Position numbers and translations under genes: made by a program. Positions 21,696 through 64,000 of a stretch of DNA of 64,000 nt are shown here, in pieces; position 1 is the first letter of the stretch, and each line of letters begins with the position of its first letter. A model generated the notes under the pieces. It searched no databases and was not told the origin of the DNA. It worked only from the letters and a program-made list of their open reading frames with translations. The DNA is taken from contig JBGAHS010000001.1 in the NCBI GenBank assembly GCA_044226015.1, forward strand, positions 1,216,001-1,280,000, written 5' to 3'. This DNA comes from Candidatus Obscuribacteraceae bacterium. GTDB taxonomy: Bacteria > Cyanobacteriota > Vampirovibrionia > Obscuribacterales > Obscuribacteraceae.

Positions 21696-22442
21696 TTAAG
21701 GGTGCCGCTTTGATGGAAAAGTGAAGATGCTTCCATTTTCGTTGACTCCATAAAAGATTGCCAAAACATCATCAAGATTGCACGGGTGTTTTTCTCCATC
21801 CTCTAAGTATTCAAAGTTCCAGCTGGAATCAAGAAACTGCCTACGCAAATACGACTTCATCAAGGAGAAAGCACCTGTCAATGCTCTAAATGAATCTATG
21901 GAATCCCAAACGAGAAGCTTGCCATTTTCTAATTGCGCTGCGCAAGTCCAACGATTTCTAACTTTCCTGGGTTTATGAACAGTCATTGCCAATTCAATTT
22001 TTGACTCATTTCCGACGGCAGTGATGATCACGCTGTCAGTGATCCGCTTTCCAAGCTTGGTGGAATCTCGCGCTATTCCTGTAAAGTCGTGCTCAAACAA
22101 TGCTTCGAGCGCAGTTTCTAGATTGACTTGTTGCCTTTTTCCTGAAAGTCGAAATCGATCGCCCGGTGCAAAATTCTCAAGCATCTTTTTACGGATTGCT
22201 CCAAACGAGTAGGCTATAGATTGAAACTCCGAAGTGCCAATTCCATGAGCTCTCAGTACTGTTTGATTATTCGAATCTTTCAATACCACGAAAGTCCAGC
22301 AAGCTTCTGGTCTGAATTTGTCCAGTCCCCATGTAGGTGCATGCACAATCAAATAATAGAAGCCCGAGCGAAAACACTGGGATTTTAGAATCTCCAGTTC
22401 GCTAAATCCAATCAGTTCCAAATTGTCAGATCGTTTTTTCAT
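21696..22442 (-). CDS. Putative immunity protein of cassette 1
   Basis: ATG overlaps the cassette-1 stop (TAATG). Confidence 0.65.
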   Translation of the reverse strand: MKKRSDNLELIGFSELEILKSQCFRSGFYYLIVHAPTWGLDKFRPEACWTFVVLKDSNNQTVLRAHGIGTSEFQSIAYSFGAIRKKMLENFAPGDRFRLSGKRQQVNLETALEALFEHDFTGIARDSTKLGKRITDSVIITAVGNESKIELAMTVHKPRKVRNRWTCAAQLENGKLLVWDSIDSFRALTGAFSLMKSYLRRQFLDSSWNFEYLEDGEKHPCNLDDVLAIFYGVNENGSIFTFPSKRHP

Positions 22443-23470
22443 TAGTCATCATCAAGTCCTTGATTCTGTCGGCTAATTGCATCGGCTTCGTCCTGTATAG
22501 CCTTTTCGAAATCTGAAGCCTTCCATCTGGCGCGTCCTCGACTTCGAATGATTCGCTTGTAGACGTTTCTATTATCCTTGTCTAACATTCCTTCTGCTGA
22601 CTCACCAAGCGTGCTTGGTTTCACCCTGCCTTTTCTTTTTTTGGCCGCCGAAAAAGGATCCTCTGGCTTTTTTAATCTTGGACGCGGATCTCGTCGAAAG
22701 TCTTCGAAGATCTTTTCCCACCATGGTGTACCTGGCTCTCCACCTTCGTCATCGGGGGCACCACCACCACCACCACCGGGGTCATCACCATCACCACCGT
22801 CCCCATTATCATTGCTGCCACCGGGATTACTTTGATAGCACCTACCAGGAATTAAAGGTTTCGAATTGCCAGCCCCTTGTCCAAATGGTACTAGGTTTCT
22901 TCCAAGAAATGAACCACGGTGTCCTCCGGGTACCGGAACTGCCGTAATAGCTAGGGTTCCATCAGGATCTACCGCCAGAATCGGATTGTTTTCAACATAG
23001 TCGAAAAGATTGATTCCGCCGATTTCACCGAGTGGATCTCGGTTGATGAATCTGCCTTGGTTGGCCGAATATGCTCGTGAGGTAGTTAAGCTGAGTTGAC
23101 TTCTTTCGTGCAGGTAATAGCTTCCGTATCGAAACGTCGCTTCCTGTGCACCAGCCAGTTTAGTCACTAGCCCGTACGGATCATATCGGTACTGGGCCTC
23201 GATGGTCGTTGTACCACCGTTAGTCTTGGTCATCTCTGTCACAGAGCCTTCGTGATTCTGCGTATAAAAATAGCTGGCACTTGGAGATGAAAGTAAAATT
23301 TGGCCCAACCAGAAGTATTGTTGGGATGAATTACTTGAAAGATCTCTTTCCTCACATCTAGCCGTTCCACACCACAAATGTTGCTTCGTCGAAGTGACAC
23401 TGCCAGCAGTGCGCTCCTCGATTTTAGTTGCGCGCGAAAGTGCATCATACGAAAATTGGGTGATGTTTCC
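22442..23470 (-). CDS. Silent Rhs cassette 1 (core + variable tip)
   Basis: Open frame from site GNITQFSYD; RFINRDPLG..NLFDYVENNPILAVDPDG; Gly/Asp linker and basic tip. Confidence 0.88.
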   Translation of the reverse strand, partial: GNITQFSYDALSRATKIEERTAGSVTSTKQHLWCGTARCEERDLSSNSSQQYFWLGQILLSSPSASYFYTQNHEGSVTEMTKTNGGTTTIEAQYRYDPYGLVTKLAGAQEATFRYGSYYLHERSQLSLTTSRAYSANQGRFINRDPLGEIGGINLFDYVENNPILAVDPDGTLAITAVPVPGGHRGSFLGRNLVPFGQGAGNSKPLIPGRCYQSNPGGSNDNGDGGDGDDPGGGGGGAPDDEGGEPGTPWWEKIFEDFRRDPRPRLKKPEDPFSAAKKRKGRVKPSTLGESAEGMLDKDNRNVYKRIIRSRGRARWKASDFEKAIQDEADAISRQNQGLDDD

Positions 23471-23714
23471 GGTGGGATAAGTCTTGATTTCGGTGAAGTC
23501 GAATGATTAAGCCAAAGTCTCTGGGTGAGAAGTCCGTCGTGCTTTTAATTCTCCCAGTGGAAGAGGTTCGAGGTTTCCGCATCCTCACGGTATTAAAAGT
23601 CAGCTGAAATCAAGGCAAAGCATTGCTCAAATTTTTGAAATGCATAACAGCGTCCGCATCAACTATAATTTAAGTCACAGTTAGTTATGACTTACAAAAG
23701 GCCATTTTTTAGCC

Positions 23715-24317
23715 GTGGATCGATTTAAGGATTATTCGCAATTGAAAACATACTCGGACAAAGGGATCACCGAGTACGTTTCGGGGAATGGAGAGTTATT
23801 GCTTCTGGCAAGCTTTTCGACAACTTTTGAACGTGGCAAGTTGATTATCTTTGATTACAAAACCGAAACCAGAACGCCGACAGTAGGACGCGACGGAAAA
23901 TTACTTTTTAAGGGATTTAGCCCCTTCTTTCAATGCCGAATGGAATTCGATTTCAAGAATTGCCATCTGACCTACACTCCTTCGAGTCCTTCATTGAAGG
24001 AGCTAAGAAAAGGCGGTCAGCTCGTAGATTTGATTAGTGAAATAAGAATTGTCTCGATAATTCCTTCTATGTTATTTGGACTCTATTCTCTGCCATTTGC
24101 AAACTCAGAATCGATCATTGTTCCATCAGAAGTTGAACTCGCAACAGGAACATCAACTAGAAAAATCCGCTACAACAACAGTGGCTACATTGAGGAAATC
24201 ATCAGAGACTCCGTACAGGAAGACCGCTCTGTTTTCCTTTCTGGATTGCAGCTAACTAAATCTACTTCCTCTTACCGCACTAAAATTCTGGTGGCAGAAC
24301 ATCGCCGGGAGGAGTAA
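23715..24317 (+). CDS. Convergent partner of cassette 2 (Y..YSDKG..FSTTF family)
   Basis: 200-aa ORF overlapping the tip 3' end; similar to 29952 and 48780. Confidence 0.65.
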   Translation: MDRFKDYSQLKTYSDKGITEYVSGNGELLLLASFSTTFERGKLIIFDYKTETRTPTVGRDGKLLFKGFSPFFQCRMEFDFKNCHLTYTPSSPSLKELRKGGQLVDLISEIRIVSIIPSMLFGLYSLPFANSESIIVPSEVELATGTSTRKIRYNNSGYIEEIIRDSVQEDRSVFLSGLQLTKSTSSYRTKILVAEHRREE

Positions 24318-25254
24318 CTCCCAGAATGCATAGCAGAATGTCCAATGAAAGTCTTGCTTCGTTCAATTGCAATCGATACTTTAAGGTGAAGTCGTCATTA
24401 CGGGCAGCTCGCAGGATCTCCCTCATATGTCTCCTTTGATATCTGTCCATGGCTCTTTGAATGCATTTATAAGCATCATCATAATCATCTCCACCTTCGG
24501 GTGGTGGAGTTATTTTGTCTCCGTCGTCATTACCGCCTCCGCCAGGTCCGCCACCACCACCGCAGCCACCTTTTTTGCTACCATTGTCAGGCTCATCGTT
24601 TTTTCCAGGTTTTGGCTCAGGACTATCGAGCATATCCGCTTCACCAAACCTAGTTTTGTTTCGCCCTCTGTATGCGCCGTCTGTAGCTAGTCTTCCGACG
24701 TTCATTCCTATCCCACCGCGCAATATCTGACCTGTAGGATCCGTCGCTAAAATTGGTGAGCAACCAACATAAGCATATAGATTCAAACCGCCATTTTCTT
24801 GGATCGGATCTCTGTTGATAAATCGTGCAGAATCGGCGCTGTAAGCCCGATAGACAGGCAGATTTAGACCACTGCTGGGATGGAAATAATAGCCCGCATA
24901 TTGGAAATCAGAATTTTGGGTACCCAGCAGTTTTGTGGAGCGACCAAACGGACTGTAGATATACTGGGCTTCTATAGTCGTAACCGGGCCCGCGACAGTC
25001 TTGGTAATTTCCCTTACAGAGTTCAAATGGTCCTTAGTGTAAAACAAGTCAGTAGCCATGCCGGTCGAAAAATTTCTTTGAGCGAGCGACAGAAATTGCT
25101 TGCCATTACTCAAACTACCAATGCCATCTCTCTCCTCACACCTGGACAAGCCACACCATACATGTTGCTTCGTCGAAGTGACACTGCCAGCAGTGCGCTC
25201 CTCGATTTTCGTGGCGCGCGAAAGTGCATCATACGAAAATTGGGTGATGTTCCA
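24280..25254 (-). CDS. Silent Rhs cassette 2
   Basis: Open from the site (in-frame TAA just upstream, so it cannot start earlier); RFINRDPI..PILATDPTG; Gly linker + helical tip. Confidence 0.88.
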   Translation of the reverse strand, partial: WNITQFSYDALSRATKIEERTAGSVTSTKQHVWCGLSRCEERDGIGSLSNGKQFLSLAQRNFSTGMATDLFYTKDHLNSVREITKTVAGPVTTIEAQYIYSPFGRSTKLLGTQNSDFQYAGYYFHPSSGLNLPVYRAYSADSARFINRDPIQENGGLNLYAYVGCSPILATDPTGQILRGGIGMNVGRLATDGAYRGRNKTRFGEADMLDSPEPKPGKNDEPDNGSKKGGCGGGGGPGGGGNDDGDKITPPPEGGDDYDDAYKCIQRAMDRYQRRHMREILRAARNDDFTLKYRLQLNEARLSLDILLCILGVTPPGDVLPPEF

Positions 25255-25415: not shown

Positions 25416-25826
25416 CTAAAAATAGACGTCAAAATACAACAGCCCAATTTCAAAGGAAGCAAGCTTCTTCATGGCTTGTGGTGCAAGATTGATAACACCA
25501 TGGTAGGATTCTGCTGACAAAAAAATAGAGATGTCAACTCTGTATCCATTTGACCTGAGCATTCGAATGAGGCTTCTCTTACCTTCAATCTTTTCCAGCA
25601 ACCACAGCAGGTGGAAATTTATATCTTTAGAAATTAAATGCGATGTTCCGAAATACCAGGCACCGAATTCATGACATACAGCAAGCTTAGTGAAGGATGA
25701 ATTCAGATCGCCTTTTCTGAAAGACCTTTGTGGAACCAATTCCAGAAGCTGTGAAATATAGCTAGGGTCGAGATCTGGATGAGCGATCCTCAAATCTAAA
25801 TACAACTCAGATGCTTCGCCAGTCAT
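25416..25826 (-). CDS. DUF4279-like immunity protein, second of a pair
   Basis: LRIAHPDLDPSYISQLLELVP..FRKGD..GAW..HLLWLLEKIE. Confidence 0.75.
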   Translation of the reverse strand: MTGEASELYLDLRIAHPDLDPSYISQLLELVPQRSFRKGDLNSSFTKLAVCHEFGAWYFGTSHLISKDINFHLLWLLEKIEGKRSLIRMLRSNGYRVDISIFLSAESYHGVINLAPQAMKKLASFEIGLLYFDVYF

Positions 25827-26272
25827 AGTGGAGCCACCCCAGAGCTCGCCCACATATCAAAGATAATGGATGAGTCATACCTCGCTAAATCTTTTAGGCT
25901 ACGATCACTAATAGTCCAGCTCATGTTCGTAGATGCGGACACAGAGTAAACGATAAACTCAGTCCTGACGCCGAGTGCAATAATTTCTTTCCACCTTCCT
26001 TGGCATGGAGCTAACTTATCCAAGAGCCATTGTAAGTGGGCTTCAAGCCTTGTAGACTGCACAAATTCATGACTGGATAAAATCCAGCCGTTCTCTAAAA
26101 CTGGAGATTCTTCTTTCTCCAAAGTAATTCTCAAATCGTTTGATAACCATGACCGACTCGGAGTAATCCCCAAAATTTCGGTTATCTGCGCAGGGTCAAA
26201 ATCTTCTCCTACAATTCTAAGACAAACGTGGATACAGGATGGTTTTTCTGAATTTGTATTTTTTGAACTAAT
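25823..26272 (-). CDS. DUF4279-like immunity protein, first of a pair; apparent ATT start
   Basis: Frame extends 5' of the track ORF: CLRIVGEDFDPAQITEILGITPSRSW..HLQWLLDKL; AGGAG 8 nt upstream of ATT 26272. Confidence 0.7.
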   Translation of the reverse strand: MSSKNTNSEKPSCIHVCLRIVGEDFDPAQITEILGITPSRSWLSNDLRITLEKEESPVLENGWILSSHEFVQSTRLEAHLQWLLDKLAPCQGRWKEIIALGVRTEFIVYSVSASTNMSWTISDRSLKDLARYDSSIIFDMWASSGVAPL

Positions 26273-26295
26273 TGGTTTGGCTCCTGTCTTCCGAG

Positions 26296-27222
26296 TTATT
26301 CTATCGGTTTTCCGTTAATGCTTGTGATATTACCTTCGCTATCATATTCAATATTATCAGCTCCGCCAAGGTCTAATCCTGCATCATCTTTTACAGTATG
26401 CGTGCGTCCTCGATCTCCCTTCTTCTCCGTTTTCTCACCTTTCGTTTTTCCTTGCTCTTGCCTCGATTTCCATCGTTCCCTTTCTCGTTCCCTGTCCCTT
26501 TTTGATTTACCTCGACTAGGGCACTCGTTGTCTTTCCCTTTTGGCCCCATTGCATTCGATAGATTCTGGAGCGCGTTCTGTATACCTGGTGCTGCGATTC
26601 TACCGACCTGCTCACCGATCGCCGCGGCTGCCACTGCTGCCCCTGCGTAAGCAATTCCTGCTAAATACGGAACCGCTGGGGCTAAGGCTACAAGAAATGT
26701 TCCATTCGGGTCTTTATAGTTTATTGGATTATCTGCAACATATGAGTAAAGATTCGCGCCCCCGTTTTCCTCAAGCATGTCTCTAGTGATGAACCGTCCT
26801 AGGCTTGAATAATAAGCCCGCGTAACAGTTAGGTTTAGTCCACTTCTACTATGTATGTAGTAACTAGCATACTGAAACTCTGATTCCAAGGAGCCGGCGA
26901 GTTTTGTTGGACGTCCATACGGATCAAAATCATATTGCGCTTCAATTGTGGTGGTGCCAGAAACTGTTTTTGTCATTTCTCGCGTTGAACCAATGTGATC
27001 TTGAGTGTAGAAATAGTTAGTAGGTGTGCTGCTGGTGAAATTGCTCTGACCAAATTCGAAAAATTGCTTGCCATTACTCAAGCTGCCCGACGCATTTCTT
27101 TCCTCGCACCTTTGCGTCCCGCACCAAATATGTTGCTTCGTCGAAGTGACACTGCCAGCAGTGCGCTCTTCGATTTTTGTGGCGCGCGAAAGTGCATCAT
27201 ACGAAAATTGGGTGATGTTCCC
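26296..27222 (-). CDS. Silent Rhs cassette 3
   Basis: Site, Rhs core, NPINYKDPNG, hydrophobic Ala-rich segment, charged tip. Confidence 0.88.
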   Translation of the reverse strand, partial: GNITQFSYDALSRATKIEERTAGSVTSTKQHIWCGTQRCEERNASGSLSNGKQFFEFGQSNFTSSTPTNYFYTQDHIGSTREMTKTVSGTTTIEAQYDFDPYGRPTKLAGSLESEFQYASYYIHSRSGLNLTVTRAYYSSLGRFITRDMLEENGGANLYSYVADNPINYKDPNGTFLVALAPAVPYLAGIAYAGAAVAAAAIGEQVGRIAAPGIQNALQNLSNAMGPKGKDNECPSRGKSKRDRERERERWKSRQEQGKTKGEKTEKKGDRGRTHTVKDDAGLDLGGADNIEYDSEGNITSINGKPIE

Positions 27223-28845: not shown

Positions 28846-29823
28846 CTACATTGCCTGTTTGAGTGGAGGAGTAGCTGGACAACCACCATCGTCGCCGTTG
28901 CCAGGACCTGGACAGCGTCGGGCGCATTCCTGCCCAGCTTGCGAAGCAAAGTTATAGGGTACACCATAATTCAACAACAGTTGAGCAGCAGCAGCACAGG
29001 CTGCCTTACAACGCTGTCCTCCATTAGGTCCGCGGAAATGAGACCAAGGCTGGCCGGGCCAGATTACGAATGGGTCTCTGTACTGGTCTGGGTGTTCCCA
29101 TTCTCTCCATTCTGGAAGTGGTGCAAGGTTTGGATCAAACAGTTCCTTAATGTTTTTGTTTAACTCCGGTCCATGATCTTGCAACCATTTCATAGCCGCG
29201 GCGGCTGAAGCAGCAGCACCAGCTGCAGCGGCCGCACCACCTACAGTAAGTGAACCTGCTTCTGTAGCAATGATCGGAATCGCCAGTACAGCAAGGATTT
29301 CGCCACTAGGGTCTGTAAATTTTGTGGGCATGTTGTTTACATAGGCATAAACATTGAGTCCTCCGTTTTCAGCAAGTGGATCTCTGTTCAAAAATCTCCC
29401 AAAGCTTGAAGAGTACTCTCTGTATACTGGCGCACTCAATCCAGCACGTGTTTGGAAAAAATATCCAGCATAAAGAAAGTCCGAGTCAGTGCCACCTGCA
29501 AGCTTGCTTCGACCTCCAAATGGATCGTAGCCATACTGAGACTCAATTGTCGTTGTTCCTGCAACATATTTTGACATTTCTCTCACTGAGCCTAAGTGGT
29601 CCGCAGAGTAGACGTAACTTGTGGCTGCACCTCCAGAGTAATTTACTTGACCGAGTCCTAAAAACACCTTGCCGTCATTCAAGCTACCCGAGGCGTTGCG
29701 CTCCTCGCATCTACTTAAGTGTGACCACAAATGTTGCTTCGTCGAAGTGACACTGCCAGCAGTGCGCTCCTCAATTTTCGTGGCGCGCGAAAGTGCATCA
29801 TACGAAAATTGGGTGATGTTTCC
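28846..29823 (-). CDS. Silent Rhs cassette 4
   Basis: Site, core, NMPTKFTDPSG, Ala-rich segment, Cys-pair tip. Confidence 0.88.
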   Translation of the reverse strand, partial: GNITQFSYDALSRATKIEERTAGSVTSTKQHLWSHLSRCEERNASGSLNDGKVFLGLGQVNYSGGAATSYVYSADHLGSVREMSKYVAGTTTIESQYGYDPFGGRSKLAGGTDSDFLYAGYFFQTRAGLSAPVYREYSSSFGRFLNRDPLAENGGLNVYAYVNNMPTKFTDPSGEILAVLAIPIIATEAGSLTVGGAAAAAGAAASAAAAMKWLQDHGPELNKNIKELFDPNLAPLPEWREWEHPDQYRDPFVIWPGQPWSHFRGPNGGQRCKAACAAAAQLLLNYGVPYNFASQAGQECARRCPGPGNGDDGGCPATPPLKQAM

Positions 29824-29951
29824 GGTGGGATTTGATTGGATTTCAGCGGGTTTGGGAAGATTCTGTTGGCGGAAGTCGTTGCAACAGTCACTTCAAGTGC
29901 TAACACGCTGATTCCGGTCAAATGGCATTGTGATAAACTGGTGTTATTATC

Positions 29952-30632
29952 TTGGTGTATCCAATGACCCCAGCCAGATTGATAGAGGCTTATAGAAATT
30001 GCTCCATCTACTCTGATAGAGGAATCTCTTTTGGTTGGGTTGGTCATAGCTTGCTCAAGACTGAATTCTCGACGCACTATGAATCACCATCTCAGTTTAC
30101 TCTAGATTGTCGACAAACCATCGATCAAACATCAACTATCCTGGGCGAATGTCACATGGAGCTTACGCCGGGTGGATTTGCTCTTCACGAATCAGAAGGT
30201 GGAAATTCCTTACCAGTGATGAGTTTAATGTCTATTGATTTAGCGATTCACCACACTTTAGTGATATCGAATGGGGTGTCTCTCTTGGTGCCTGGCTTGC
30301 TGTTTAACAGAGTGAGTGGTGACTCTCTCAACATGAGATTCTTTGAAGACTGGGCTGAGAACGATGATGGATCAATTGAGGTCCATGGAAGAAAAGGTTA
30401 TATGAGAATTTGGCTTAACGGATCGCTAATTGAAAGAGCTATTATTTTGTTAAAAAGTCGGGATAAGAAACATTCAATCGAAATCGCGAGGAACGCAGGA
30501 TTTGATGGCGATTTTACTCTACCCGCGCAAACTTTTAGCATCATCAAAGAGTTGGGAGGCCGATTAGTTGGCGATCTTAGCCAGCTGACAGCTTGTTATT
30601 TGTTAGATTACAAAGAACATAGATTTATTTAG
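29952..30632 (+). CDS. Convergent partner of cassette 5
   Basis: YRNCSIYSDRG..EFSTHYE; ends 5 bp from the tip stop. Confidence 0.65.
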   Translation: MVYPMTPARLIEAYRNCSIYSDRGISFGWVGHSLLKTEFSTHYESPSQFTLDCRQTIDQTSTILGECHMELTPGGFALHESEGGNSLPVMSLMSIDLAIHHTLVISNGVSLLVPGLLFNRVSGDSLNMRFFEDWAENDDGSIEVHGRKGYMRIWLNGSLIERAIILLKSRDKKHSIEIARNAGFDGDFTLPAQTFSIIKELGGRLVGDLSQLTACYLLDYKEHRFI

Positions 30633-31912: not shown

Positions 31913-32476
31913 TTACCTGAATCGATTTCGAATATCATCCCAATCGCAATCTGACTTCCATCCACCTAAAGCTAGTTCCGGATGAGCTATAAATAAGTCG
32001 GTAAAAATCTTATCGGTTTCAACCAGCAAACTCCCAATTCGTCTTCTGTAGAGTCTTTTATCTTCGTCGCTCTTGCTCAATTCATAAAGAAAACAACTTC
32101 TATTCAAGAGAAGTGTTACATGAGCCATAATTTGCCTAATTTGGATAGCAATCACTTCATCATCAAAAGCTAAGTAATTTGCTACTTTTGGACGTTTCCT
32201 TTTCTTGGAAAAATCAGTTGGCGTATTGATCTCATCTGAGCTTGAGTCTTCATTTTCAGGACTCAGAACTTCATAGGAAATATGCCTAAATTCAGGCATG
32301 CGAGCCACTTCCAATAGTTCTTCAACGTTCGCAAGGAGCTTATGCAAAAGTGGATTGAGCAACTTAATCCGCTCGGCAGGTTCTTCCTGCAATGCCCACA
32401 GGGTGTACTTTAGAATCCACTCAATTTGCTCTATTGTTTCCTCTGTAGCAACATCACCATAGTTTTGCTTATTCAT
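31913..32476 (-). CDS. Putative immunity/partner of cassette 6
   Basis: TAATG coupling at 32476. Confidence 0.6.
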   Translation of the reverse strand: MNKQNYGDVATEETIEQIEWILKYTLWALQEEPAERIKLLNPLLHKLLANVEELLEVARMPEFRHISYEVLSPENEDSSSDEINTPTDFSKKRKRPKVANYLAFDDEVIAIQIRQIMAHVTLLLNRSCFLYELSKSDEDKRLYRRRIGSLLVETDKIFTDLFIAHPELALGGWKSDCDWDDIRNRFR

Positions 32477-33991: not shown

Positions 33992-33998
33992 ATAATTA

Positions 33999-54636: not shown

Positions 54637-55683
54637 TTATCTCCGAACACCATTAGGATAAACGTTAGTATAACCACCACCGGGTTCTTGCACATCCCAA
54701 TGAGGTCCGCCATGAGCATTAGGAGATCCTTCTGGTCCAGTCGGTACCCAAACATTGCCGCTTGCATCTTCCCAGCCGTAGCCTGACCCATTGGGATTTT
54801 TTACCCAGTTTGGACCACCTTTGGGCTCTTCGTACCCAGTCGCTGGATGATTCGCTGGATTACCAGGAGCTTTTGGACCATTAGGATCGTGTGCATTGTC
54901 AGGTGGCTTCATGCAGAGGGTGTTCGGCAAAATACCTTGCGCTGGCTTGTAGCCAGCTAGTTGTCCAGCCAAATTGCTAAGTCCTCCAGCGAAGCCGCCT
55001 ACAGCACCAAGACCTAATCCCCCCAACCCAGCTCCTGGGAACGCCAAGATCCCACCTGCTTCGATTGAGATTGCACCTCCTGCAATACCGCCAGCAACCA
55101 TACCGGCCTCGATTCCTGCAACGGCCCCTTGGTTGGCAGCTGATTGGACTTGCCCCCAGTCAATCAAACCAGTTGGATCTCGCCGTGAAATCGGATTGCT
55201 CCCTGCGTAAGCATAGAGATTCGAACCACCTGCAATTCCAATGGGGTCCCTGTTAACGAACCGCCCACGAGTGGGCAGGTAAGCTCTGTAAGAGGGCAAC
55301 AGTAAACCGCTCCTGGGGTGAGCATAATAACCCGCGTACTGCATGTCGGCATCACCACTCCCCTGGGTCTTGGTTACTTCACCATATGAAGAATAGCCAT
55401 ACTGGGCAACGATAGCGCCAGCGCCATCAGTCATCTCCCTGATACTGCCAGGCGGATCATCCTTGGTGTAGTAGTAGCTAGTGCCACTACCACTTGTGAA
55501 GTTCCTTTGCCCCAAGGTGAAGAATTGCTTTCCATTGCTCAAGCTCCCCGACGCATCTCTTTCCTCACACCTTTGCGTCCCGCACCAAAGATGTTGCTTC
55601 GTCGAAGTGACACTGCCTGCAGTGCGCTCTTCAATCTTCGTGGCGCGCGAGAGTGCATCATACGAAAATTGGGTGATGTTTCC
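54637..55683 (-). CDS. Silent Rhs cassette 14, polymorphic toxin type 37 (Ntox37)-like tip
   Basis: DPNGPKAPG..WVKNPNG.GYGWEDASGNVWVPTG..AHGGPHWDVQ.PGGGYTNVYP. Confidence 0.87.
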   Translation of the reverse strand, partial: GNITQFSYDALSRATKIEERTAGSVTSTKQHLWCGTQRCEERDASGSLSNGKQFFTLGQRNFTSGSGTSYYYTKDDPPGSIREMTDGAGAIVAQYGYSSYGEVTKTQGSGDADMQYAGYYAHPRSGLLLPSYRAYLPTRGRFVNRDPIGIAGGSNLYAYAGSNPISRRDPTGLIDWGQVQSAANQGAVAGIEAGMVAGGIAGGAISIEAGGILAFPGAGLGGLGLGAVGGFAGGLSNLAGQLAGYKPAQGILPNTLCMKPPDNAHDPNGPKAPGNPANHPATGYEEPKGGPNWVKNPNGSGYGWEDASGNVWVPTGPEGSPNAHGGPHWDVQEPGGGYTNVYPNGVRR

Positions 55684-56108
55684 AGTGCGTGAGGACTTGA
55701 TCTCGCTGATGAAATGAGGTCAATGCACTAAGCAAAAGTCGGAACATGTGCCGTGCTGCAAAAGAAAAATGATCTGGTGCTAGCGGGTGCTTGACTGTTA
55801 TCTTGCAGGTTCCTTAGGTGTCTGATCACTTTTAATTCTTAATTCAGCTTAGTCTGCTGCTTTGCAGATACGCCTCAAACACAATTATTTTTTTTGCGCG
55901 TAGCCGCATCCTCGGTTCTTTCAGGTTGTCCTAACAAACCTTGTCTATTACTCTATTACTAGAGCATGGAAATCATTTCTTCCTCGTTCAGTCTATAGTT
56001 CTTTGATCCTTGCGTACGCAGACGCAATTCGACGACTTTTGAAACACGCATAGCATGCCTATAGTCAACAGTGATAAGCAAAAAATCTCTGAAGCTTTGC
56101 TACAAGAG
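55658..56108 (-). repeat. 451-bp inverted repeat, left copy (leader + site)
   Basis: Reverse complement of 63436-63886; no mismatch seen in the stretches compared. Confidence 0.95.
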
Positions 56109-56367
56109 CCAGGTCTTTTACTTCAGCTTGAGTCAAATTCTAGAGCTCTTCGATCAAGATCTGTATGTTTAATCGGTGCCAAATTTTTTAGCCGAAAATG
56201 GTGTTTGAAGAGATATGCGGTTTGAAATAGGCGAAAACAACGGTCAGATGGTTCAAAGTCAAAGATAGCTGAGAACAGTCCTTTTCGGCTATCTTTATGT
56301 AGAGACAGAGGTTAATGGCTCTAATCTTTGCAAAGAAATTCTTTCTATAGGGAGAAGGGTGACATTG

Positions 56368-56790
56368 TCATAAAGCCACTCTGATAAATACTTTCTGATT
56401 CATCCTATCAACCAATTCACATGCGGATTTGAGATCAGTAAGTATTGTCAGAACTGATTTGTCAGTATAGTTACGAGCTATTACAGGATCGTATTTCTTC
56501 CATTGCTTGACCAAACTTTTTAACTCTTCCTTACTAGCTCTCCATAGAAAGTTGACCACGTCGGCAGGTATTTGGTATAGCCAAACGGTCTCCGCAACCG
56601 AAGTGTATAAGATCGGAATTGCATCCTCGTCATACTTAGTGCGAGTTACGATGGATAACAGGCTAGCCACGTTCGCTGGCATTAAATCGGGGATCAGTAA
56701 TTCCCCTTCTTTCTCAGAAAAGCCAGGGTGCTCACACCTCCGCTTAGCAGAAGCAAGTGTTCCGACAAGTATGTGTGTCATAATGCCCAA
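56368..56790 (-). CDS. Hypothetical, probably an orphan immunity protein
   Basis: MGIMTHILVGT..VWLYQIPADVV..W..LTDLKSACEL..VFIRVAL reads as a compact natural protein; head-to-head with the Rhs body. Confidence 0.6.
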   Translation of the reverse strand: MGIMTHILVGTLASAKRRCEHPGFSEKEGELLIPDLMPANVASLLSIVTRTKYDEDAIPILYTSVAETVWLYQIPADVVNFLWRASKEELKSLVKQWKKYDPVIARNYTDKSVLTILTDLKSACELVDRMNQKVFIRVAL

Positions 56791-59700
56791 AATAGAAGAC
56801 CCAACCTTCGATACTGATGGTACAAAGTGGATCACCGCAGCCGCACTCAACTCTGAGACCGACGGCTATTTCATGATTCCGTCAGATCAAATGAGCGCTG
56901 CGTGGACTTTGCTTGATGCTGACCAGGCAAAAGCAATTTGGGGAAAGGGTTACGCTCTGCTTCCTCAACAATTCAAAACACCAAATTGCCCCAAATCACC
57001 TTGTACAACAGGCTGCAGTTGCCCAGTAAATGGGATGCCGAAAGCTTCAGCTTTTTCTATGAATGCCACACTCAATATTGTGGATACGCCGCTGTCTTAT
57101 TCGCCACCAATTGGTCCAGACATGGGCGTGGTCGTTAATTACAATTACAACGAAGCTGAGCAACCCTCAAATTTCACCTTCACAAATCTTGGGCATAACT
57201 GGAGCCTGAATTGGCTCTCTTATCTCACTATTGATAGCACTGACCCCATTCATCGAATAGTGAAAGTGAGAGTTAGAGGCGGCGGTTATGAGCAGTACAC
57301 CGAGCCATTTGGGAACAGAAATCCTTATTCTCTTGCGATTATTGCAGAAGTAAACAATGCAGGAGTAATAAGTTGGGAACGACGGATGCCTGACGGAAGC
57401 GTCGAAAAATACGAAAGAAAAAATGCTGCCGGAGACACCTTCTTTCTTACCCAGGTTGTTGACCCTCAGAACAACGCAGCCGTTCTGTCTTACTCATCCA
57501 ACACAGTTACAGATCCAGGCTATTTCCGCCTGGCTTCAATTACTGATGCCTGTGGCAACTCTCCGATGACGGTGACATACGATTCAAACAGTTCAACAGA
57601 CCCCGGCTATTACAAGGTTACCAGCGTTGCCGATGGCTTTGGCCGCTCTGCCAGCTTTGCATACAGCTCTGACAAAAGCCAATTGCTCAGCATTACCGAT
57701 GCGGTTGGAAACCAGTCAAAATTTTCCTATCAGACTGACACGGACTCAACCTTTATAAACCTTATGGTCACGCCCTACGGATCTACTGGATTCTATCGGT
57801 ACACACCAGCGGGTGCGACGGGAGCCGTGCCGGAAGGAATGACGTTCACACTACCAGATGGTTCAAGCACACGAATTGAAAATTGGTTGGGCGAACTCAA
57901 ATATACTTATTTTTGGGATAGAGAAGCCTCTGAGATGTATCCGGACGATGCATTCAACAATGTCTACACGCACTGTCAGACTACTCGCTGGCTGTACACA
58001 CCTAATTCCGTTCAGACATCTATCCCTAGTTGGACCAGAAAGCCACTGGAAGCACCCGTAAGCTATTACTTTCCGGGTCAGACTGGCTGGAACCAAATTT
58101 CTGGTGGATTTGTGCGTGTCCAGCAGATGTCGCAACAACTGGTTCCCATTAAGAACACGATAACTATTGGCGGAACAATTACCGCAGGAAATATCATCAA
58201 GGTAGAACTCGATGATCTTGGTCTCCCCGAGGGACTTACACAGGTTTCTTACACGGTTGTTGCGGGAGACACGACAAGCACAATAGCTGCGGGGTTGGTT
58301 CAGAGTATAAACAATTCGACGCCCTTGCAAGCCTTTGGAATCACCGCCACTTCCGTGGGCAACGTAGTGACAGTTAGTTCCCTTACACCAAATGACTTTG
58401 ATAGCAGCAAATTTGTTAATAAGTCAGGAGCGGTAACTGAGACTTTGACTTTTACCACTGGAACCAATCGAGTTCAGAACTTCACTTGTAGTGGAACCGC
58501 TACGGCGGGGCAAGTCTACGCGATAACAGTCACTGACTCCACCTTGCCTGGTGGTTCACAAACTATTAGCTACACCGTTCAAACTGGAGATAGCAACGCC
58601 GATATAGCTCAAGCGCTGTCACTTGGCGTAAATGCAAATGCAAACCTTCAAGCTTCGAAGATTTCGTCTGCATGGAGTAGTGCCTTCTATATTGGAGTTG
58701 GACAAACACCTTCAAGTACAGCCAACCCTGTGATTGGTGTTCAGACAAATTCAACCAGCAGCACCACGTATTCTGGCACCGTTAATGGTGCTGCAAGCGC
58801 TAACTTTAGCAGTGCAACCAGTGCTCATGGTCTAGTTAAGGCAAATTACAACCTCTACACTGACGTTGGCAATCCGAACCCTACTGCGATAATCGATCAA
58901 TTAGGAAGACGACTAGACATCACTTATGCGGCAAACGACATTGACGTAATCAAGGTCCTCGAAAATGCGGCGCTGCATTCAAGCCTGGTTGGCTATTGGA
59001 CGTATGGAACCGTTCCACATAAGCCGACCGCTGCCTACGATTCATCACTGCAGCACACTCTCTACACCTACCAGAGTAACGGCGAGCTGGCTACCGTAAC
59101 AGACCGAAACGGAGCCACCACAACCTACAATTACAACGCCAACAGTTATCTCAGCTCCATCGATGGACCATTAAGTGGCAACCAGGACGTGACTACATTC
59201 TCCTTCTACGGGTATGGTCTGCCAAGCTCAATCACAGACTCTGAAGGCTACACGCTCAACTTCTCTTACGACGGTTTGAACCGTTTAACCAGCACTGCGT
59301 TTCCTGATGGCACCACAGAAGACACCAGATATAATCGGCTCGATGCTGTAATGATGTCTGACCGTATTGGCCGGTGGACTCAGCGAACCTACGACAGCAT
59401 GCAGAATTTGGTCTCCGAGGTTGACCCGCTTGGACGACAAACGAAGTATTGTTGGTGCCATTGTGGTGGTCTGGCATCATTGACTGACCCTGCAGGCAAT
59501 ACCACAAAATGGCATCATGACCTGGAAGGTCGCGTTATTCAGAAGGAATACGCTGATGGTTCTCATTACGACTACGTCTATGAAACCACAAACAGCAGAA
59601 TCGCTTCAATTTCTGATGCCATTCAGCCGACTCCGCAAAGCACCATTTTCACCTACAACCTGAATGATTCTGTTGCCGTCAAGCGCTATGCCAATGCCGT

Positions 59701-62680
59701 GAACGCAACATCTCAAGTTGTGTCTGCATTCGACCCATACTTTGACCGTCCGCAATCGATTTCTAACGGCTGGGGACAATACAATTACAAATACTACCCT
59801 TATTACAAGGACGCGTTCTTCAACCCTGATAATGGCTGGACATCAATTGTTGTTGGCGGCATCCCCGAGGTGCCGAACGCGACAGACACCATCAGTATTG
59901 TCTTCTACAGCTCTAACCTCGCGGGAGGACAATATACTTTCAATTACACGGTTCCTGCCGGTGATGTTGGAAACACGAATCAGCTAGCAACGCATCTTTC
60001 AGCTGCTATCGATGCTGATACGACTTTGAACAATGCGGGAATCAATCCTAGCCTCAGCAGTAATTTTGTAATTCGAATTCACAACCAAACTGTGGACCTT
60101 CGGGTGGCACCGACGGCGACTGGCGGAACCATTGTCACCTGTGGCTCAGGCAAGCTGAGCGATGTCACTAACACTGTGATTTCTAACTCGCAAATTTCCT
60201 ACGGGTACGATGGCGAGGGCAGAACTCAAGCCAGGCTCATCAATGGAGGAAACAATCAATCCAGGTGGACCTTCGACGCGATGGGTCGAGTCACCACAGA
60301 GCTCAATCCATTAGGTACCTTCAACTATGCCTACATCGACAACACAGCGGGCTCTTCAAAGGGTGTAAATCGACTCGCCTCGATTACTTACCCGAACAGC
60401 CAGGTTACAAATTTCAGTTGGCTGCCGAACATCGGCGACCAGCGCTTACAACAAATTTCGAATCTAAGTCCGAGCGCGACTACCTTGTCGAAATTTGCCT
60501 ATGCCTACAATTCCGCCGGTGAAATCACGCAATGGCAGCAGCTGCAGAATAGCGTCAATACCCACCTCGGGCTGGCTTATGATAATGCTGGGCAGCTGAT
60601 TACAGCAGTTTCTGATTCGGGCACTCTGTTCAAAGCATACATAGCCGGAACGCCTCACGCAGGCGATGTCGTCTCAGTTACTGCCTATGATGCATCGCTG
60701 ACCGGCACGACGCCGGTTGGCCAAGAGACTGCATCTTATACAGTTGTCGGCGGTGACACATCGGCGACCATCGCCACAAATCTTGCTAGCGCAATTACTT
60801 CCGTGATGGGAACGAATCTGGGTCTGAGCGCATCAGCCAGCGGCAAAGTTATTTCCATAACTACATCAGCTACCCGTGCAACGCAATTCACTTCCGCGGT
60901 CAGCGGAGTTGGTGCCACGGATACCATCATCATGGACCGTGGTCAGCCAAGCGGCAACCGACACAGCCAGCTCTACTATGCCTATGATTGCGCAGGCAAT
61001 CGCACCGGGGTGCAAGGCGACAGCACTGGCAGCTTCGGAGCTGGCGGTCTGAACACAAACGCCACAGCCTATGGCTACAACAACCTGAACGAGCTAACAA
61101 ACTATGCTCCCGGTGGTCCAATCAGATTTGAAGGAAGCACCACGAACCCGATCATTTCTGCGGTGGCAAATGTCACGAAAACGGTCACCGTTACGGGCTC
61201 GGTTACTGCTGGCGACAAATTGACGGTTAGTGTCCATGACCCTGCCATCACAGCCGGAAAGGACATCACCTACACGGTTGTCGGAGGCAACACAACTACC
61301 GATATTGCGACTGGCTTGAAAAATCTAATCAATGCCGACTCTACCCTGTCTTCGCTAGGCATCACTGCCACTTCAAGTGCTAACGTCTTGACCATTACAT
61401 CGACTTCAGCCAACAAGACAATGTACTCGGCGAGCAAGAATACTGGAGCTAGCGAAACACTGACTCTCAACGCCTCAGCCTCGGACACTGCGCTAATCAG
61501 TCCTTCGACTGCATTCAGCTCAAACCCGAAGCTTGCATTGAGTTCGAATACTGTTAAGGTAACGGCTAAGAGTGGCGGCGGCACAGCGGCAACCAATTCG
61601 TATCCAATAAGCATCAACTCGGCGTCATCTGCGACACTGCAATACGACGCGAATGGCAATATGACGAGCGACGGAACAAACACCTACTCCTGGGATGCCG
61701 AAAATAGGCTGATTCAGATTACTTATCCGGGCTCGGGAAATAACACCCAATTTTCGTATGATGCACTTTCGCGCGCAACGAAAATCGAGGAGCGCACTGC
61801 TGGCAGTGTCACTTCGACGAAGCAACACCATTGGGCGGGACTGCAAAAACGTGAGGAGAGAGATGGAGCAGGAACTTTAACAAATGGCAAGCTTTTCTTT
61901 GCAGCTGGAGAAATTAGCTTCGTAAGCGGAGCAGCATCAAATTGCTTTTTCACGCAAGACCATTTGGGCTCAACCAGAGAGTTTACTAGCTCAATCGGAG
62001 GAACTTTTAGCGTTCAAGCTGTCTACGCCTATTCTCCCTATGGGAATGCCGTTAAAGTCGCTGGCAGCAATGACACCAATTTCCAATTCGCAGCGATGTA
62101 CACAAACTTGCGCTCTGGAGTTGTGCTCACTTTAAAGCGCGAATTTTCACCAACATTGGGGCGCTGGCTCAGCCGCGATCCCCTTGGCGAAATAGTATCC
62201 AATAATCTTTTTGATTATGCAGACAACAATCCGGTATTATTTGTTGATGTTTTGGGACTAGCACCGATTACCGGTCCCACCGTAATCGGTCCCGCTTGCC
62301 CCATAAAAGGAAGAGATCCTTGCGCAGATCTACTGGCAAGTATGGCAAGCCGAATTTCTCAAATAAACCATGAAGTTGAATTGATGTATTCGGACCCTGG
62401 AGACTTGTTCCATTTGGCTTATGCTACTCCTAATCCTGCGAAAACTGGACACCGATATACTTATTTCGGACACGCTATGGAAATTGAAAACTACCAAACC
62501 AGTCTTGGTAAAAGTTATAAAAAAGCTGTCGAGATGGGATGTTTAGGCATACCCACGTCTGAAGTAAAACGAGCGCTAAATGCGGAGATTCCTATGATGC
62601 CTGCGGGCGAAACTGAGCTTCACTTGTCTGGAAACGAACTGAAAGCAGTTATGAGAATGCTCAGTGGCGGAAAGAAATAA
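56783..62680 (+). CDS. Large Rhs/YD-repeat toxin body with currently attached tip; appears 5'-truncated
   Basis: Many YD repeats, GRWLSRDPLG..NNPVLFVDVLG; begins in IEDPTF..ETDGYFMIP..W..AKAIWGKG; track residues 56507-56782 are probably the antisense of the neighbouring gene. Confidence 0.9.
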   Translation: MPKIEDPTFDTDGTKWITAAALNSETDGYFMIPSDQMSAAWTLLDADQAKAIWGKGYALLPQQFKTPNCPKSPCTTGCSCPVNGMPKASAFSMNATLNIVDTPLSYSPPIGPDMGVVVNYNYNEAEQPSNFTFTNLGHNWSLNWLSYLTIDSTDPIHRIVKVRVRGGGYEQYTEPFGNRNPYSLAIIAEVNNAGVISWERRMPDGSVEKYERKNAAGDTFFLTQVVDPQNNAAVLSYSSNTVTDPGYFRLASITDACGNSPMTVTYDSNSSTDPGYYKVTSVADGFGRSASFAYSSDKSQLLSITDAVGNQSKFSYQTDTDSTFINLMVTPYGSTGFYRYTPAGATGAVPEGMTFTLPDGSSTRIENWLGELKYTYFWDREASEMYPDDAFNNVYTHCQTTRWLYTPNSVQTSIPSWTRKPLEAPVSYYFPGQTGWNQISGGFVRVQQMSQQLVPIKNTITIGGTITAGNIIKVELDDLGLPEGLTQVSYTVVAGDTTSTIAAGLVQSINNSTPLQAFGITATSVGNVVTVSSLTPNDFDSSKFVNKSGAVTETLTFTTGTNRVQNFTCSGTATAGQVYAITVTDSTLPGGSQTISYTVQTGDSNADIAQALSLGVNANANLQASKISSAWSSAFYIGVGQTPSSTANPVIGVQTNSTSSTTYSGTVNGAASANFSSATSAHGLVKANYNLYTDVGNPNPTAIIDQLGRRLDITYAANDIDVIKVLENAALHSSLVGYWTYGTVPHKPTAAYDSSLQHTLYTYQSNGELATVTDRNGATTTYNYNANSYLSSIDGPLSGNQDVTTFSFYGYGLPSSITDSEGYTLNFSYDGLNRLTSTAFPDGTTEDTRYNRLDAVMMSDRIGRWTQRTYDSMQNLVSEVDPLGRQTKYCWCHCGGLASLTDPAGNTTKWHHDLEGRVIQKEYADGSHYDYVYETTNSRIASISDAIQPTPQSTIFTYNLNDSVAVKRYANAVNATSQVVSAFDPYFDRPQSISNGWGQYNYKYYPYYKDAFFNPDNGWTSIVVGGIPEVPNATDTISIVFYSSNLAGGQYTFNYTVPAGDVGNTNQLATHLSAAIDADTTLNNAGINPSLSSNFVIRIHNQTVDLRVAPTATGGTIVTCGSGKLSDVTNTVISNSQISYGYDGEGRTQARLINGGNNQSRWTFDAMGRVTTELNPLGTFNYAYIDNTAGSSKGVNRLASITYPNSQVTNFSWLPNIGDQRLQQISNLSPSATTLSKFAYAYNSAGEITQWQQLQNSVNTHLGLAYDNAGQLITAVSDSGTLFKAYIAGTPHAGDVVSVTAYDASLTGTTPVGQETASYTVVGGDTSATIATNLASAITSVMGTNLGLSASASGKVISITTSATRATQFTSAVSGVGATDTIIMDRGQPSGNRHSQLYYAYDCAGNRTGVQGDSTGSFGAGGLNTNATAYGYNNLNELTNYAPGGPIRFEGSTTNPIISAVANVTKTVTVTGSVTAGDKLTVSVHDPAITAGKDITYTVVGGNTTTDIATGLKNLINADSTLSSLGITATSSANVLTITSTSANKTMYSASKNTGASETLTLNASASDTALISPSTAFSSNPKLALSSNTVKVTAKSGGGTAATNSYPISINSASSATLQYDANGNMTSDGTNTYSWDAENRLIQITYPGSGNNTQFSYDALSRATKIEERTAGSVTSTKQHHWAGLQKREERDGAGTLTNGKLFFAAGEISFVSGAASNCFFTQDHLGSTREFTSSIGGTFSVQAVYAYSPYGNAVKVAGSNDTNFQFAAMYTNLRSGVVLTLKREFSPTLGRWLSRDPLGEIVSNNLFDYADNNPVLFVDVLGLAPITGPTVIGPACPIKGRDPCADLLASMASRISQINHEVELMYSDPGDLFHLAYATPNPAKTGHRYTYFGHAMEIENYQTSLGKSYKKAVEMGCLGIPTSEVKRALNAEIPMMPAGETELHLSGNELKAVMRMLSGGKK

Positions 62681-63317
62681 ATTGAAAGGACTCGAGGCAA
62701 CTATCGCTCAACTTTACGATTCCTTCGCAGAATATAGGCAAGGAAACATGAATTTGAGCAAGAGGCTCAAAAACATTAGCAACTCCGAAATATATCAGTA
62801 TGCCTCAGATGTGATAAATATTGCGGAGGTGGACGAATATCTGCATTACCTCCCGCGAATTTTGGAGTGTGCTACGGAATCTCAATGGCAGTTAGGGGAC
62901 ATCTTTCAAAATATCGGTATCTGTCTCCATTTTGGAACTGTAAGTTCTGAGCAAATTTCAACTTTGCGAGAATTCTTGCTGGAATGGTGGAGAATTCAAA
63001 TCCAGTCCCCTTGCACGATTACAACAATTTCTCCGATTGCTGAATTCTTGATAGACCTCAACCGAGGATTTGACGATTTAGAATGGCTTCTAGAGGTATG
63101 GACCGCTGAAAATAGCGATAACGCCTTTGCCAATCTTAGTGGAATGATCTATACCGCAGTGATGCATAAGGCATTATTTTCTGAGGAATTGAGCAGGCAA
63201 ATAACTCGATGGTTGAGTTGTGAATCTACTAGAAGTTGGATTGCTTTTGGAATGCAACAATACAGTGGACAGCCGTGGTGTAGCGAGTTAGTAGAAAATC
63301 TCAGCTACATCTCCTAA
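62664..63317 (+). CDS. Putative cognate immunity protein of the attached tip
   Basis: Overlaps the Rhs stop; LYDSFAEY..YLHYLPRILE. Confidence 0.75.
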   Translation: MAERNKLKGLEATIAQLYDSFAEYRQGNMNLSKRLKNISNSEIYQYASDVINIAEVDEYLHYLPRILECATESQWQLGDIFQNIGICLHFGTVSSEQISTLREFLLEWWRIQIQSPCTITTISPIAEFLIDLNRGFDDLEWLLEVWTAENSDNAFANLSGMIYTAVMHKALFSEELSRQITRWLSCESTRSWIAFGMQQYSGQPWCSELVENLSYIS

Positions 63318-63435
63318 TGAAGCAGGGGGTGGGTTGGCGAGTTTAATTGTGGAAACTGGGGACTAACGACGATGCAAACTCACACTTTAAGAATTCCCGT
63401 GTGCGGAGGAAATAGGCGCGACGACATCCAGCACA

Positions 63436-63886
63436 CTCTTGTAGCAAAGCTTCAGAGATTTTTTGCTTATCACTGTTGACTATAGGCATGCTATGCGTGT
63501 TTCAAAAGTCGTCGAATTGCGTCTGCGTACGCAAGGATCAAAGAACTATAGACTGAACGAGGAAGAAATGATTTCCATGCTCTAGTAATAGAGTAATAGA
63601 CAAGGTTTGTTAGGACAACCTGAAAGAACCGAGGATGCGGCTACGCGCAAAAAAAATAATTGTGTTTGAGGCGTATCTGCAAAGCAGCAGACTAAGCTGA
63701 ATTAAGAATTAAAAGTGATCAGACACCTAAGGAACCTGCAAGATAACAGTCAAGCACCCGCTAGCACCAGATCATTTTTCTTTTGCAGCACGGCACATGT
63801 TCCGACTTTTGCTTAGTGCATTGACCTCATTTCATCAGCGAGATCAAGTCCTCACGCACTGGAAACATCACCCAATTTTCGTATGA
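63436..63886 (+). repeat. 451-bp inverted repeat, right copy; contains a tyrosine recombinase remnant at 63448-63525
   Basis: SFRDFLLITVDYRHAMRVSKVVELR; ends in the 26-bp site. Confidence 0.93.
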
Positions 63887-64000
63887 CGGCTTCGGAAAGT
63901 GCATCAAAATTGTAGAGACGACCGCCGGGTCCGTAACGAGTACTAAAAGCTTCGTCTTTCGGGGCAAGGGGAGGTGCGAAGCTCGTGATGCGTCCGGGAA
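63861..64000 (+). CDS. Rhs cassette 15, first of a right-hand arm, runs off the window
   Basis: GNITQFSYDGFGKCIKIVETTAGSVTSTKSFVFRGKGRCEARDASG. Confidence 0.85.

Follow-up and report, generated by a model that had tools for sequence, protein, structure and literature searches.

A candidate Rhs toxin shufflon in an uncultured obscuribacterial genome, with outward-pointing silent tip cassettes and a tyrosine recombinase beside the probable exchange site

How a silent Rhs tip becomes the expressed tip is a long-open question, and the papers on rhs tip switching (PMC2935791, PMC3967940), as far as their accessible text goes, credit slow homologous recombination, with one of them stating that no integrase is known beside Rhs. 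The question is posed again by a stretch of 64,000 nucleotides from a Candidatus Obscuribacteraceae bacterium (GenBank assembly GCA_044226015.1, contig JBGAHS010000001.1; the window, G000:C11:1216001-1280000, in whose numbering coordinates are given unless prefixed C11 or with another contig or locus). It holds most of locus A, which consists of one Rhs toxin body gene and 17 silent core-tip cassettes that point outward on both sides of it. On balance, we favour the reading that a dedicated tyrosine recombinase exchanges the tips at an 18-bp in-frame site, and that the outward layout makes exchange with the opposite arm an inversion, as in a shufflon. That tip exchange is site-specific we regard as very likely, and if it is, recurrent inversion is likely.

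The body lies on the plus strand, in an open reading frame (ORF) at 56471-62680 with RHS_repeat and Rhs_assc_core domains, and has an internal site at 61736-61761; ORF, domains and a pattern search here agree with a preliminary description of the window. Fourteen silent cassettes lie on the minus strand to the left and three on the plus strand to the right, where at least one had been noted: the first begins at 63861 and two more lie past the window, at 69199 and 71831. The count of 14 on the left had also been given correctly, but not the statement that all of them start at the same site, because the cassette at 48297 has a degenerate site and that at 45358 is preceded by a remnant of a body; 15 of the 17 cassettes begin at the fixed site. 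In 14 of the 17, core and tip can be read without a break from the site codon onward; the broken ones are 48297, 50384 and 54156. The centre of the locus contains the features below, in which body B is the body gene of a second locus, locus B, on the same contig.

55658-56108, unstranded: left copy of a 451-bp inverted repeat, made of a 425-bp arm and the 26-bp site (repeat comparison)
56368-56781, minus: 137-amino-acid gene left from a deleted cassette, likely its immunity gene (no family match)
56788-56790, unstranded: deletion joint with a 3-bp overlap (unitig comparison, body B alignment)
56788-62680, plus: Rhs body, 5'-truncated, with the currently attached core and tip (ORF list, domain matches, comparison with body B)
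61736-61761, plus: body-type site, with the crossover probably in 61744-61761 (site types differ at +5 and +7)
62748-63317, plus: likely immunity gene of the attached tip (ORF directly 3' of the body; no family match)
63436-63886, unstranded: right-hand 451-bp repeat copy, with the site 63861-63886 at its end (repeat comparison, site search)
63861-64000, plus: first right-arm cassette, 308 amino acids open, extending past the window (core domain, open frame)

To assess the orientation of the two arms, we used sequencing runs that were available as unitigs, which break at sites, and counted only joins inside unitigs, from X1 (possibly the source sample), X2 (from another study) and X3; runs X4-X7 contributed small shares, from which no support was drawn. 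Candidate read joints with short sides or from repeated core starts were not counted, and the gap left by X2, whose unitigs do not cover the attached tip (62010-64000) or several cassettes, was not used as support. A site and a recombinase on the minus strand are joined to a body on the plus strand inside single unitigs of X1 (7449 nt, 0 differences) and of X2 (8957 nt). Since this head-to-head join is found within unitigs of two runs, misassembly, which the preliminary description had named as a possible refutation, is removed as the cause of the layout. The orientation of the segment between the two copies of the perfect 451-bp repeat is unphased by unitigs; both arms point outward in either case.

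At what point, then, are tips exchanged? The 26-bp site pattern, with at most two mismatches, has 15 matches in the window (13 minus, 2 plus) and none in 100 shuffles. Over the 276 pairs of 24 site copies, median identity drops from 96% in the site to 88 and 85% up to +100 and then to 54-62% between +100 and +500. Among 22 copies, codon pairs for the same residue are identical in 97% of cases at site codons 4-9, in 66% at codons 10-33 and in 40% at codons 61-170, and as codon identity is far higher in the site than beyond it, the constraint acts on the DNA. At +5 to +8 the sequence is TAAC in the three body-type copies and CATC in 19 of the 21 cassette-type ones; the cassette-type copies have a loose ~23-bp upstream motif in common. 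Sequences on the two sides of the site combine differently from cassette to cassette: 55683 and 63861 have 425 bp upstream in common at 100% and exactly the 26 bp downstream, 37616 and 69199 have 75 bp upstream and 29 downstream, and 31627 and 69199 have 17 bp upstream and 724 downstream. At least 60 bp upstream are common to 7 of the 276 pairs, at least 220 bp downstream to 9, and both to none; relatives of arms and cores are found in both orientations. Because the site types differ at +5 and +7 and two cores diverge directly after +25, we infer that the exchange point would lie within +8 to +25, that is, the 18 bp at 61744-61761, with arms and cores reassorting there. Exchange at a short in-frame site, and not along the core, had been proposed before and is borne out by the identity profile and by this reassortment. 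No attC-like hairpins were found in 72-nt folds of the 24 sites on both strands (z +0.9 to -2.9, with only a 5-bp stem in common).

Which enzyme could act at this site? No cognate-type recombinase was found within the window, and the intact one that had been sought beyond 64 kb is present at locus B (C11 ~79.5-102.2 kb), outside the window, which has the same site and layout as locus A, with 5 minus cassettes, a 2309-aa body on the plus strand and 1 plus cassette, all 6 cassette frames being open. A dedicated tyrosine recombinase there adjoins the site: it is encoded on the minus strand (C11:89522-90643; PF00589, E 3e-21), head-to-head with two accessory genes and the body, its stop lies 39 bp before the innermost left site (89483), and its catalytic R, K, H-x-x-R, H and Y are intact. 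All five of its NCBIfam matches are far below cut-off and its homologues are arm-domain integrases; against TIGR02249, the model for integron integrase IntI, it scores 20.5 bits (cut-off 265). The arm-type domain PF13356 is missing from this enzyme and from its 5 closest homologues and present in 3 of 3 more distant ones. Within the cassettes of loci A and B no integrase remnant was found.

Body B starts with a signal-peptide-like stretch (judged by eye) and a C39-like domain, and its homology to body A starts at body-B residue 324. The body in the window is 5'-truncated at 56788, and its recombinase is lost. The 8957-nt X2 unitig begins with the window body from 56788 at 96% and has at its far end the locus-B recombinase and site (48 differences in 1578 nt), the recombinase stretch joined there to a window-type body being 97% identical to the locus-B recombinase. 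X2 unitigs depart from the window sequence at 56790 and 56788, and a second one runs through 55554-56790 and on into 796 bases of different sequence, with one more core on the minus strand beyond them. The joint 56788-56790 itself is contained within X1 and X3 unitigs. The recombinase-body join in X2, together with homology starting at residue 324, indicates that the window copy carries a deletion. It is a relic that has lost a cassette, the recombinase, two accessory genes, the promoter region and ~323 N-terminal body residues. The X2 unitig is probably the orthologue of locus A, judging from body identity and common cassettes and not from contiguity; the cassette content of X2 differs from that of the window. 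X2 also matches the flank of locus B over 3489 nt with 0 differences and then diverges, so that a very close strain does not have locus B at this position. The window copy, probably no longer secreted, would serve as a store of cassettes that only the locus-B enzyme, acting in trans, could switch.

The recombinase belongs to a family with a history around Rhs genes. Homologues (E <= 1e-25) occur in 74 of 104 family genomes, and a profile search at E <= 1e-90 found them in 40 of 96 family genomes and in none of 204 genomes from the class's other families; source names include Candidatus Obscuribacterales and Melainabacteria. In 10 of 29 genomes the best homologue has a Rhs core no more than 1.5 kb away; for generic integrase loci, a weak control made up of distant integrases from other phyla, the count is 0 of 58 within 10 kb. 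Among metagenome loci, 30 of 78 have a Rhs core near the homologue and the remainder, including a large clade, have no Rhs nearby. The usual layout of these kin is tandem, with body, tip, immunity gene, recombinase and displaced core, sometimes three units in series; the 37 regions viewed were hand-picked, mostly for both genes being near, and yield no frequency. A quick tree (129 rows) unites the arm-less recombinase and its five closest relatives in one clade (SH-aLRT 99; long branches flagged), and the enzyme appears to be an offshoot, without the arm domain, of an integrase family whose members are elsewhere carried by the individual tip modules of tandem arrays. In L137 and G006:C15, the two other members of the arm-less clade with context, the cassettes likewise start at CCAATT, which lies ~25 bp downstream of the starting point in the other kin, and the site adjoins the recombinase start in a layout that is tandem as far as visible.

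Kin loci also indicate a fixed joining point. When 32 distinct cassette starts that follow a recombinase are compared with the body consensus, agreement is 0.94-1.00 from position -44 onward and only 0.31 at -47 and 0.44 at -50, positions at which 42 bodies score 0.95 and 1.00 (positions -69 to -52 and -39 to -30 served for row sorting, and only -50, -47 and -44 to -41 are cited from this alignment). A GCAC...GTGC-like palindrome lies upstream of 18 of the 32 starts as against 0 of the 42 bodies. The most direct sign of site-specific shuffling is a swap between the near-identical strains L172 and L174/G102:C7, in which two units (4.8 and 5.5 kb), at least 99.9% identical, stand in exchanged order at a common 20-bp site, with different cores following them. 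The regions concerned (L172:1-10318, L174:1481-12126, G102:C7:173489-184179) show three different arrangements in three assemblies, and one swapped unit carries a recombinase. A divergent unit is found in one metagenome contig from elsewhere (L145 and L208): leftward lie two recombinase-bearing cassettes, an attached tip and a body with an accessory gene pointing left, and on the other side come a rightward-pointing recombinase, a site and a cassette. Its three recombinases have the arm domain, and since the enzyme of the divergent unit falls in another clade, the divergent layout arose at least twice or is old.

Several other loci bear on the range of these enzymes and arrays. In the same genome, an arm-domain homologue at C4:23998-28097 is divergently oriented to a truncated Rhs gene that belongs to a different type, and a further homologue at C9:396495-397802 lies in a prophage-like stretch without Rhs; homologues at 40-44% identity occur in Nitrosomonas and on plasmid records of Legionella (P0080, P0081, P0087, hits H1 and H2). 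Four contig ends of G000 (C13 right, C3 left, C3 right, C5 right) begin inside Rhs cores pointing away from the gap, the C13 and C3 cassettes start at a related site, and the assembly holds no matching body for any of the four; these ends may mark a further pair of two-armed loci whose centres were not assembled.

From these observations a switching cycle can be proposed. An intact central unit would run from a site through the recombinase, which points to it, and the accessory genes to the body and a second site. If the body-type site recombined with one of the cassette type, the body would come to lie in frame with the core and tip of that cassette, and the old tip would be left behind the cassette arm; as the right halves of all sites are alike, the products would again be one body-type and one cassette-type site, and the reaction would be repeatable. 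Tyrosine recombinases invert the DNA between inverted sites and excise it between direct ones. With a partner in the opposite arm the central unit would flip and nothing would be lost, with a partner in the same arm a circle would be excised, and circles re-entering at a site would create duplicates. The arm behind the body may be the short one (3 against 14 cassettes at locus A, 1 against 5 at locus B) because excision would wear it down. A triplicated core, the duplicated 425-bp arm and sequences common to both loci mean that circles or copying are needed. Hence, the earlier proposal that recombination between the body and the left arm would be an inversion producing two arms stands in its geometry, circles and duplication acting besides; its further claim that nothing is lost is contradicted by the three copies of one core, the duplicated arm and the differing X2 cassettes. 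From the 165-bp body remnant that points left in the left arm it follows that sequence of this arm was once located behind a body, which fits one inversion as well as many. Presumably this enzyme and this site form a pair, inversion takes place, the enzyme can act in trans and most of the tips are toxic. More tentatively, a family of small integrase modules in this bacterial family may have specialised on Rhs genes, entering them at a single codon-aligned site and supplying a new tip in place of the old one, may have gone head-to-head at least twice and may here have become the arm-less resident invertase of a two-armed shufflon.

The same enzyme and site could also have produced the locus without recurrent inversion, if a one-off head-to-head rearrangement set the layout and the arms change only by excision and integration of circles, captured at two points, the body site and the recombinase-proximal one, in a double-ended, integron-like manner. 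Such a history would account for tandem kin with units permuted in direct orientation, for duplicates and inter-locus sharing that call for circles or copying, for a recombinase-proximal site that resembles the body type at +7, for a recombinase that begins the longer arm in both loci, and for the count of 0 divergent kin bodies in 30. We consider it unlikely: given inverted body and cassette sites, lambda-type and simple tyrosine recombinases do invert, the divergent unit recurs in a second clade (L145/L208), and the arm-binding domain, the usual imposer of direction, is missing. Homologous displacement of C-termini over the conserved ~100 bp at the start of the core, with the recombinase a passenger and the layout an accident, would draw on the 85-88% likeness of those 100 bp, on the 165 bp of body at cassette 45358, as displacement would leave it, on longer near-identical cores in other arrays of this genome and on tips that are mosaic further downstream too. 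It hardly fits a start fixed in 15 of 17 cassettes with a common upstream motif, two cores that share only 26-29 bp with same-arm partners, or the tight recombinase linkage and 20-bp swap point in kin, and the cases published, in the accessible text, involve variable lengths at very high identity (522 bp at 95% for homologous displacement, PMC3967940; PMC2935791); we regard it as improbable. Least credible is an assembly error at repeated core starts or at the 451-bp repeat, for which one can cite repeats longer than short reads and several contigs of this genome that end in Rhs cores, but which, for the central unit, is already largely refuted by the minus-strand core and recombinase joined to the plus-strand body inside single unitigs in each of two runs, which come from different studies, by the minus-strand gene and plus-strand body joined inside X1 and X3 unitigs, and by the matching unit in a contig from elsewhere (L145/L208).

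Against site-specific exchange with recurrent inversion, a number of observations have to be set. Among the unitigs, which break at sites, neither an inverted junction nor a central unit in flipped orientation was observed, and movement between the arms is equally explained by circles. The absence of pairs alike in both arms is near chance (0.2 expected) and counts only against whole-cassette copying, and the first 100 bp, at 85-88% identity, are alike enough to allow RecA some part. Loci A and B, with recombinases 97% alike, are of single origin and not two independent cases, and the exact site is absent from 40 relatives and from metagenome and viral contigs, a set from which own or very near records were perhaps excluded. 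The recombinase-proximal site is atypical (at most 5 mismatches, no upstream motif) and could be a second acceptor. Comparison of layouts in related genomes, which the preliminary description had called for, gave a mixed result: beside the one divergent metagenome contig, hand-picked kin with a recombinase are mostly tandem, and a recombinase or opposite core was found in the 13-16 kb upstream of 0 of 30 full-length kin bodies, a sample chosen by body, in which assemblies breaking at switching loci would be under-represented. Lastly, the only rearrangement seen directly (L172/L174) is in direct orientation, in another lineage and taken from assemblies.

How does the locus compare with known systems? 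Phage-type integrative elements insert into a gene and replace its 3' end, and the kin modules resemble them in that core, tip, immunity gene, integrase and site are stacked behind a body. Here, unlike in those elements, the replacement end is a new toxin domain, the modules lack an integrase and a single enzyme lacks the arm domain; loci A and B show neither an arm-domain integrase nor one integrase per unit, the latter being seen in many kin loci. The locus as a whole departs from integrons, classical orphan arrays and arm-domain integrative elements and shows three features of shufflons. Its partial 3' segments start from a common in-frame site (open in 14 of 17 at locus A and 6 of 6 at locus B), its sites are inverted (13 minus and 2 plus in the window, with unitig support), and an intact tyrosine recombinase is adjacent at locus B and in strain X2, though deleted in the window copy. 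What defines a shufflon is a fourth feature, inversion isomers within a population or between strains, and the unitigs here end at the very sites across which such isomers would be read. The pilV shufflon of R64, R721 and ColIb-P9, as defined in the accessible part of PMC3414803, likewise has a constant N-terminal gene, partial C-terminal segments, inverted sites and one adjacent tyrosine recombinase. Unlike in pilV, the cargo here is a toxin tip with an immunity gene, the recombinase sits inside the central unit, there are two kinds of site (body and cassette) and a pair of long arms that each point one way, cassettes undergo gain, loss and duplication as well, the enzyme comes from arm-domain integrases and inversion would be the mode of exchange only by our reading. 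Orphan rhs-CT arrays, in the accessible text of PMC2935791 and PMC3967940, also have one body, silent modules of core, tip and immunity gene, displaced tips that are kept, and circles that have been proposed. A Rhs core, a variable tip and a downstream immunity gene are present here as there; the fixed start, the integrase abutting the site and the opposite orientation of most cassettes (14 of 17 upstream and opposite, in place of downstream co-oriented orphans) set the locus apart, as does the lack of variable-length core fragments near-identical to the body, with the exception of 45358.

Recombinases beside toxin loci have been noted before. Integrase-like genes near Rhs loci of the bee-gut bacteria Snodgrassella and Gilliamella were suggested to act in toxin capture, a role called untested in the source (PMC5727410), whose accessible text gives no site, frame rule or inversion. 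Xer-type recombinases (XerC/D) are linked to immunity-only arrays (PMC3482391, 10.1101/2025.05.03.651265), and these rAID or polyimmunity loci resemble ours in a tyrosine recombinase beside an array with conserved intergenic motifs and in their part in interbacterial conflict; unlike it, so far as these texts go, they hold co-oriented immunity genes only, with no in-frame fusion to a toxin body. In the parts available, 10.1101/2025.05.08.652813 makes no mention of integrase, inversion or orientation, and 10.64898/2026.09.08.750204 mentions Rhs only within a reference. Our literature search, mainly of open text without supplements, found no description of a site-specific or inversion-based Rhs switch.

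The left arm is made up as follows, all features being on the minus strand and open lengths given in amino acids (aa).

21696-22445: likely immunity gene of the outermost left cassette, where the locus ends on the left (ORF adjoining the stop codon of the tip)
22442-23470: silent cassette 1 with site 23445-23470, core and tip, 342 aa open (core domain, open frame, site)
24280-25254: silent cassette 2, 324 aa open (open frame, site)
25416-26314: two DUF4279 genes after cassette 3, likely immunity genes by position (Pfam PF14106)
26296-27222: silent cassette 3, 308 aa open (core domain, open frame, site)
28846-29823: silent cassette 4, 325 aa open (core domain, open frame, site)
30638-31627: silent cassette 5, 329 aa open (sequence comparison, open frame)
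32476-33399: silent cassette 6, 307 aa open (core domain, open frame, site)
36648-37616: silent cassette 7, 322 aa open (core diverges from others directly after the site)
39144-42345: three tandem tyrosine recombinase genes, RIT-like passenger element (PF00589 in all three)
44291-45358: silent cassette 8 with body-type site, 355 aa open (site search, open frame)
45359-45523: 165-bp remnant of body A, pointing left (identity 161/165 to body A, 145/165 to body B)
46070-46966: silent cassette 9, 298 aa open (core domain, open frame, site)
47641-48297: cassette 10, with degenerate site and broken start (site alignment, frame check)
49382-50384: cassette 11, with intact site and frameshifted core, left end approximate (frame check)
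50619-51059: Imm53 immunity gene of cassette 12 (PF15580, E 1e-33)
50935-51954: silent cassette 12, 339 aa open (core domain, open frame, site)
53298-54156: cassette 13, with intact site and frameshifted core, left end approximate (frame check)
54637-55683: silent cassette 14 with Ntox37 toxin tip, 348 aa open (PF15535, E 2e-20)

The Rhs core model TIGR03696 matches 14 of 14 cassette cores scanned. Pfam labels at locus A are Ntox37 for one tip, Imm53 for one neighbour and DUF4279 for three; a Pfam scan of 14 tips gave nothing for 11 and only sub-threshold matches for two. The first ~726 bp of cassette 5 are 94-96% identical to cassettes 50384 (minus) and 69199 (plus), whose upstream arms differ. 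Contig C2 (70 kb, 140-bp terminal overlap) carries at C2:19672-30149 a full Rhs gene with a tip 51% identical to that of cassette 23470, followed 3' by a gene resembling 21696-22445, the downstream gene of that cassette, and a small recombinase-like ORF. Genes without Pfam match lie on the strand opposite to their cassettes at 23691-24317, 29937-30632, 48732-49274 and 52313-53155, the first of them, with its arm, being common to locus B at 96%. At 49553-49870, X1 unitigs show several small indels near a G-rich run, some of which may be assembly errors or a mixture of paralogues.

Passenger DNA lies at 33527-42984 in the left arm, with an HTH_17 gene, a reverse-transcriptase fragment (35552-36079), a CopG-like gene, the recombinase trio and a fragment that we take to be transposase-like. 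The trio, three adjacent co-oriented genes, was rejected as the cognate enzyme because it has a single genome copy, lies inside an insertion sequence (IS) fragment and has no counterpart at locus B; it shows only one 48-aa match to the cognate recombinase and almost none to the Rhs-linked family. Its assignment as RIT is presumptive and draws on a table in PMC3414803. The right arm is broken by a three-gene insertion sequence at L006:9453-12788 (C11:1281453-1284788), a copy of which is also in the C3 Rhs array. We take this element to be IS66-like from its motifs. A large ORF lies just right of the locus (C11:1289765-1293703), and a gene ~8 kb beyond the right arm is presumably XerC-like and probably housekeeping. 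To the left, at 1-21560, lie ordinary-looking transport genes, which we assume to be of efflux type.

What, then, would the locus mean for these bacteria? Its value is tempered by the relic state of the window copy, by an uncultured host and by the fact that shufflons in themselves are nothing new. For the question of how silent Rhs tips become the expressed one, an enzyme, an 18-bp site and a reading-frame rule are all identified, and the answer proposed here is hence testable. If inversion is the mode of exchange, the kin loci would trace a path from a mobile integrase module to a resident shufflon, and a polymorphic toxin locus would be phase-variable without loss of immunity genes, so that a clone could sample up to ~18 toxins while keeping every immunity gene.

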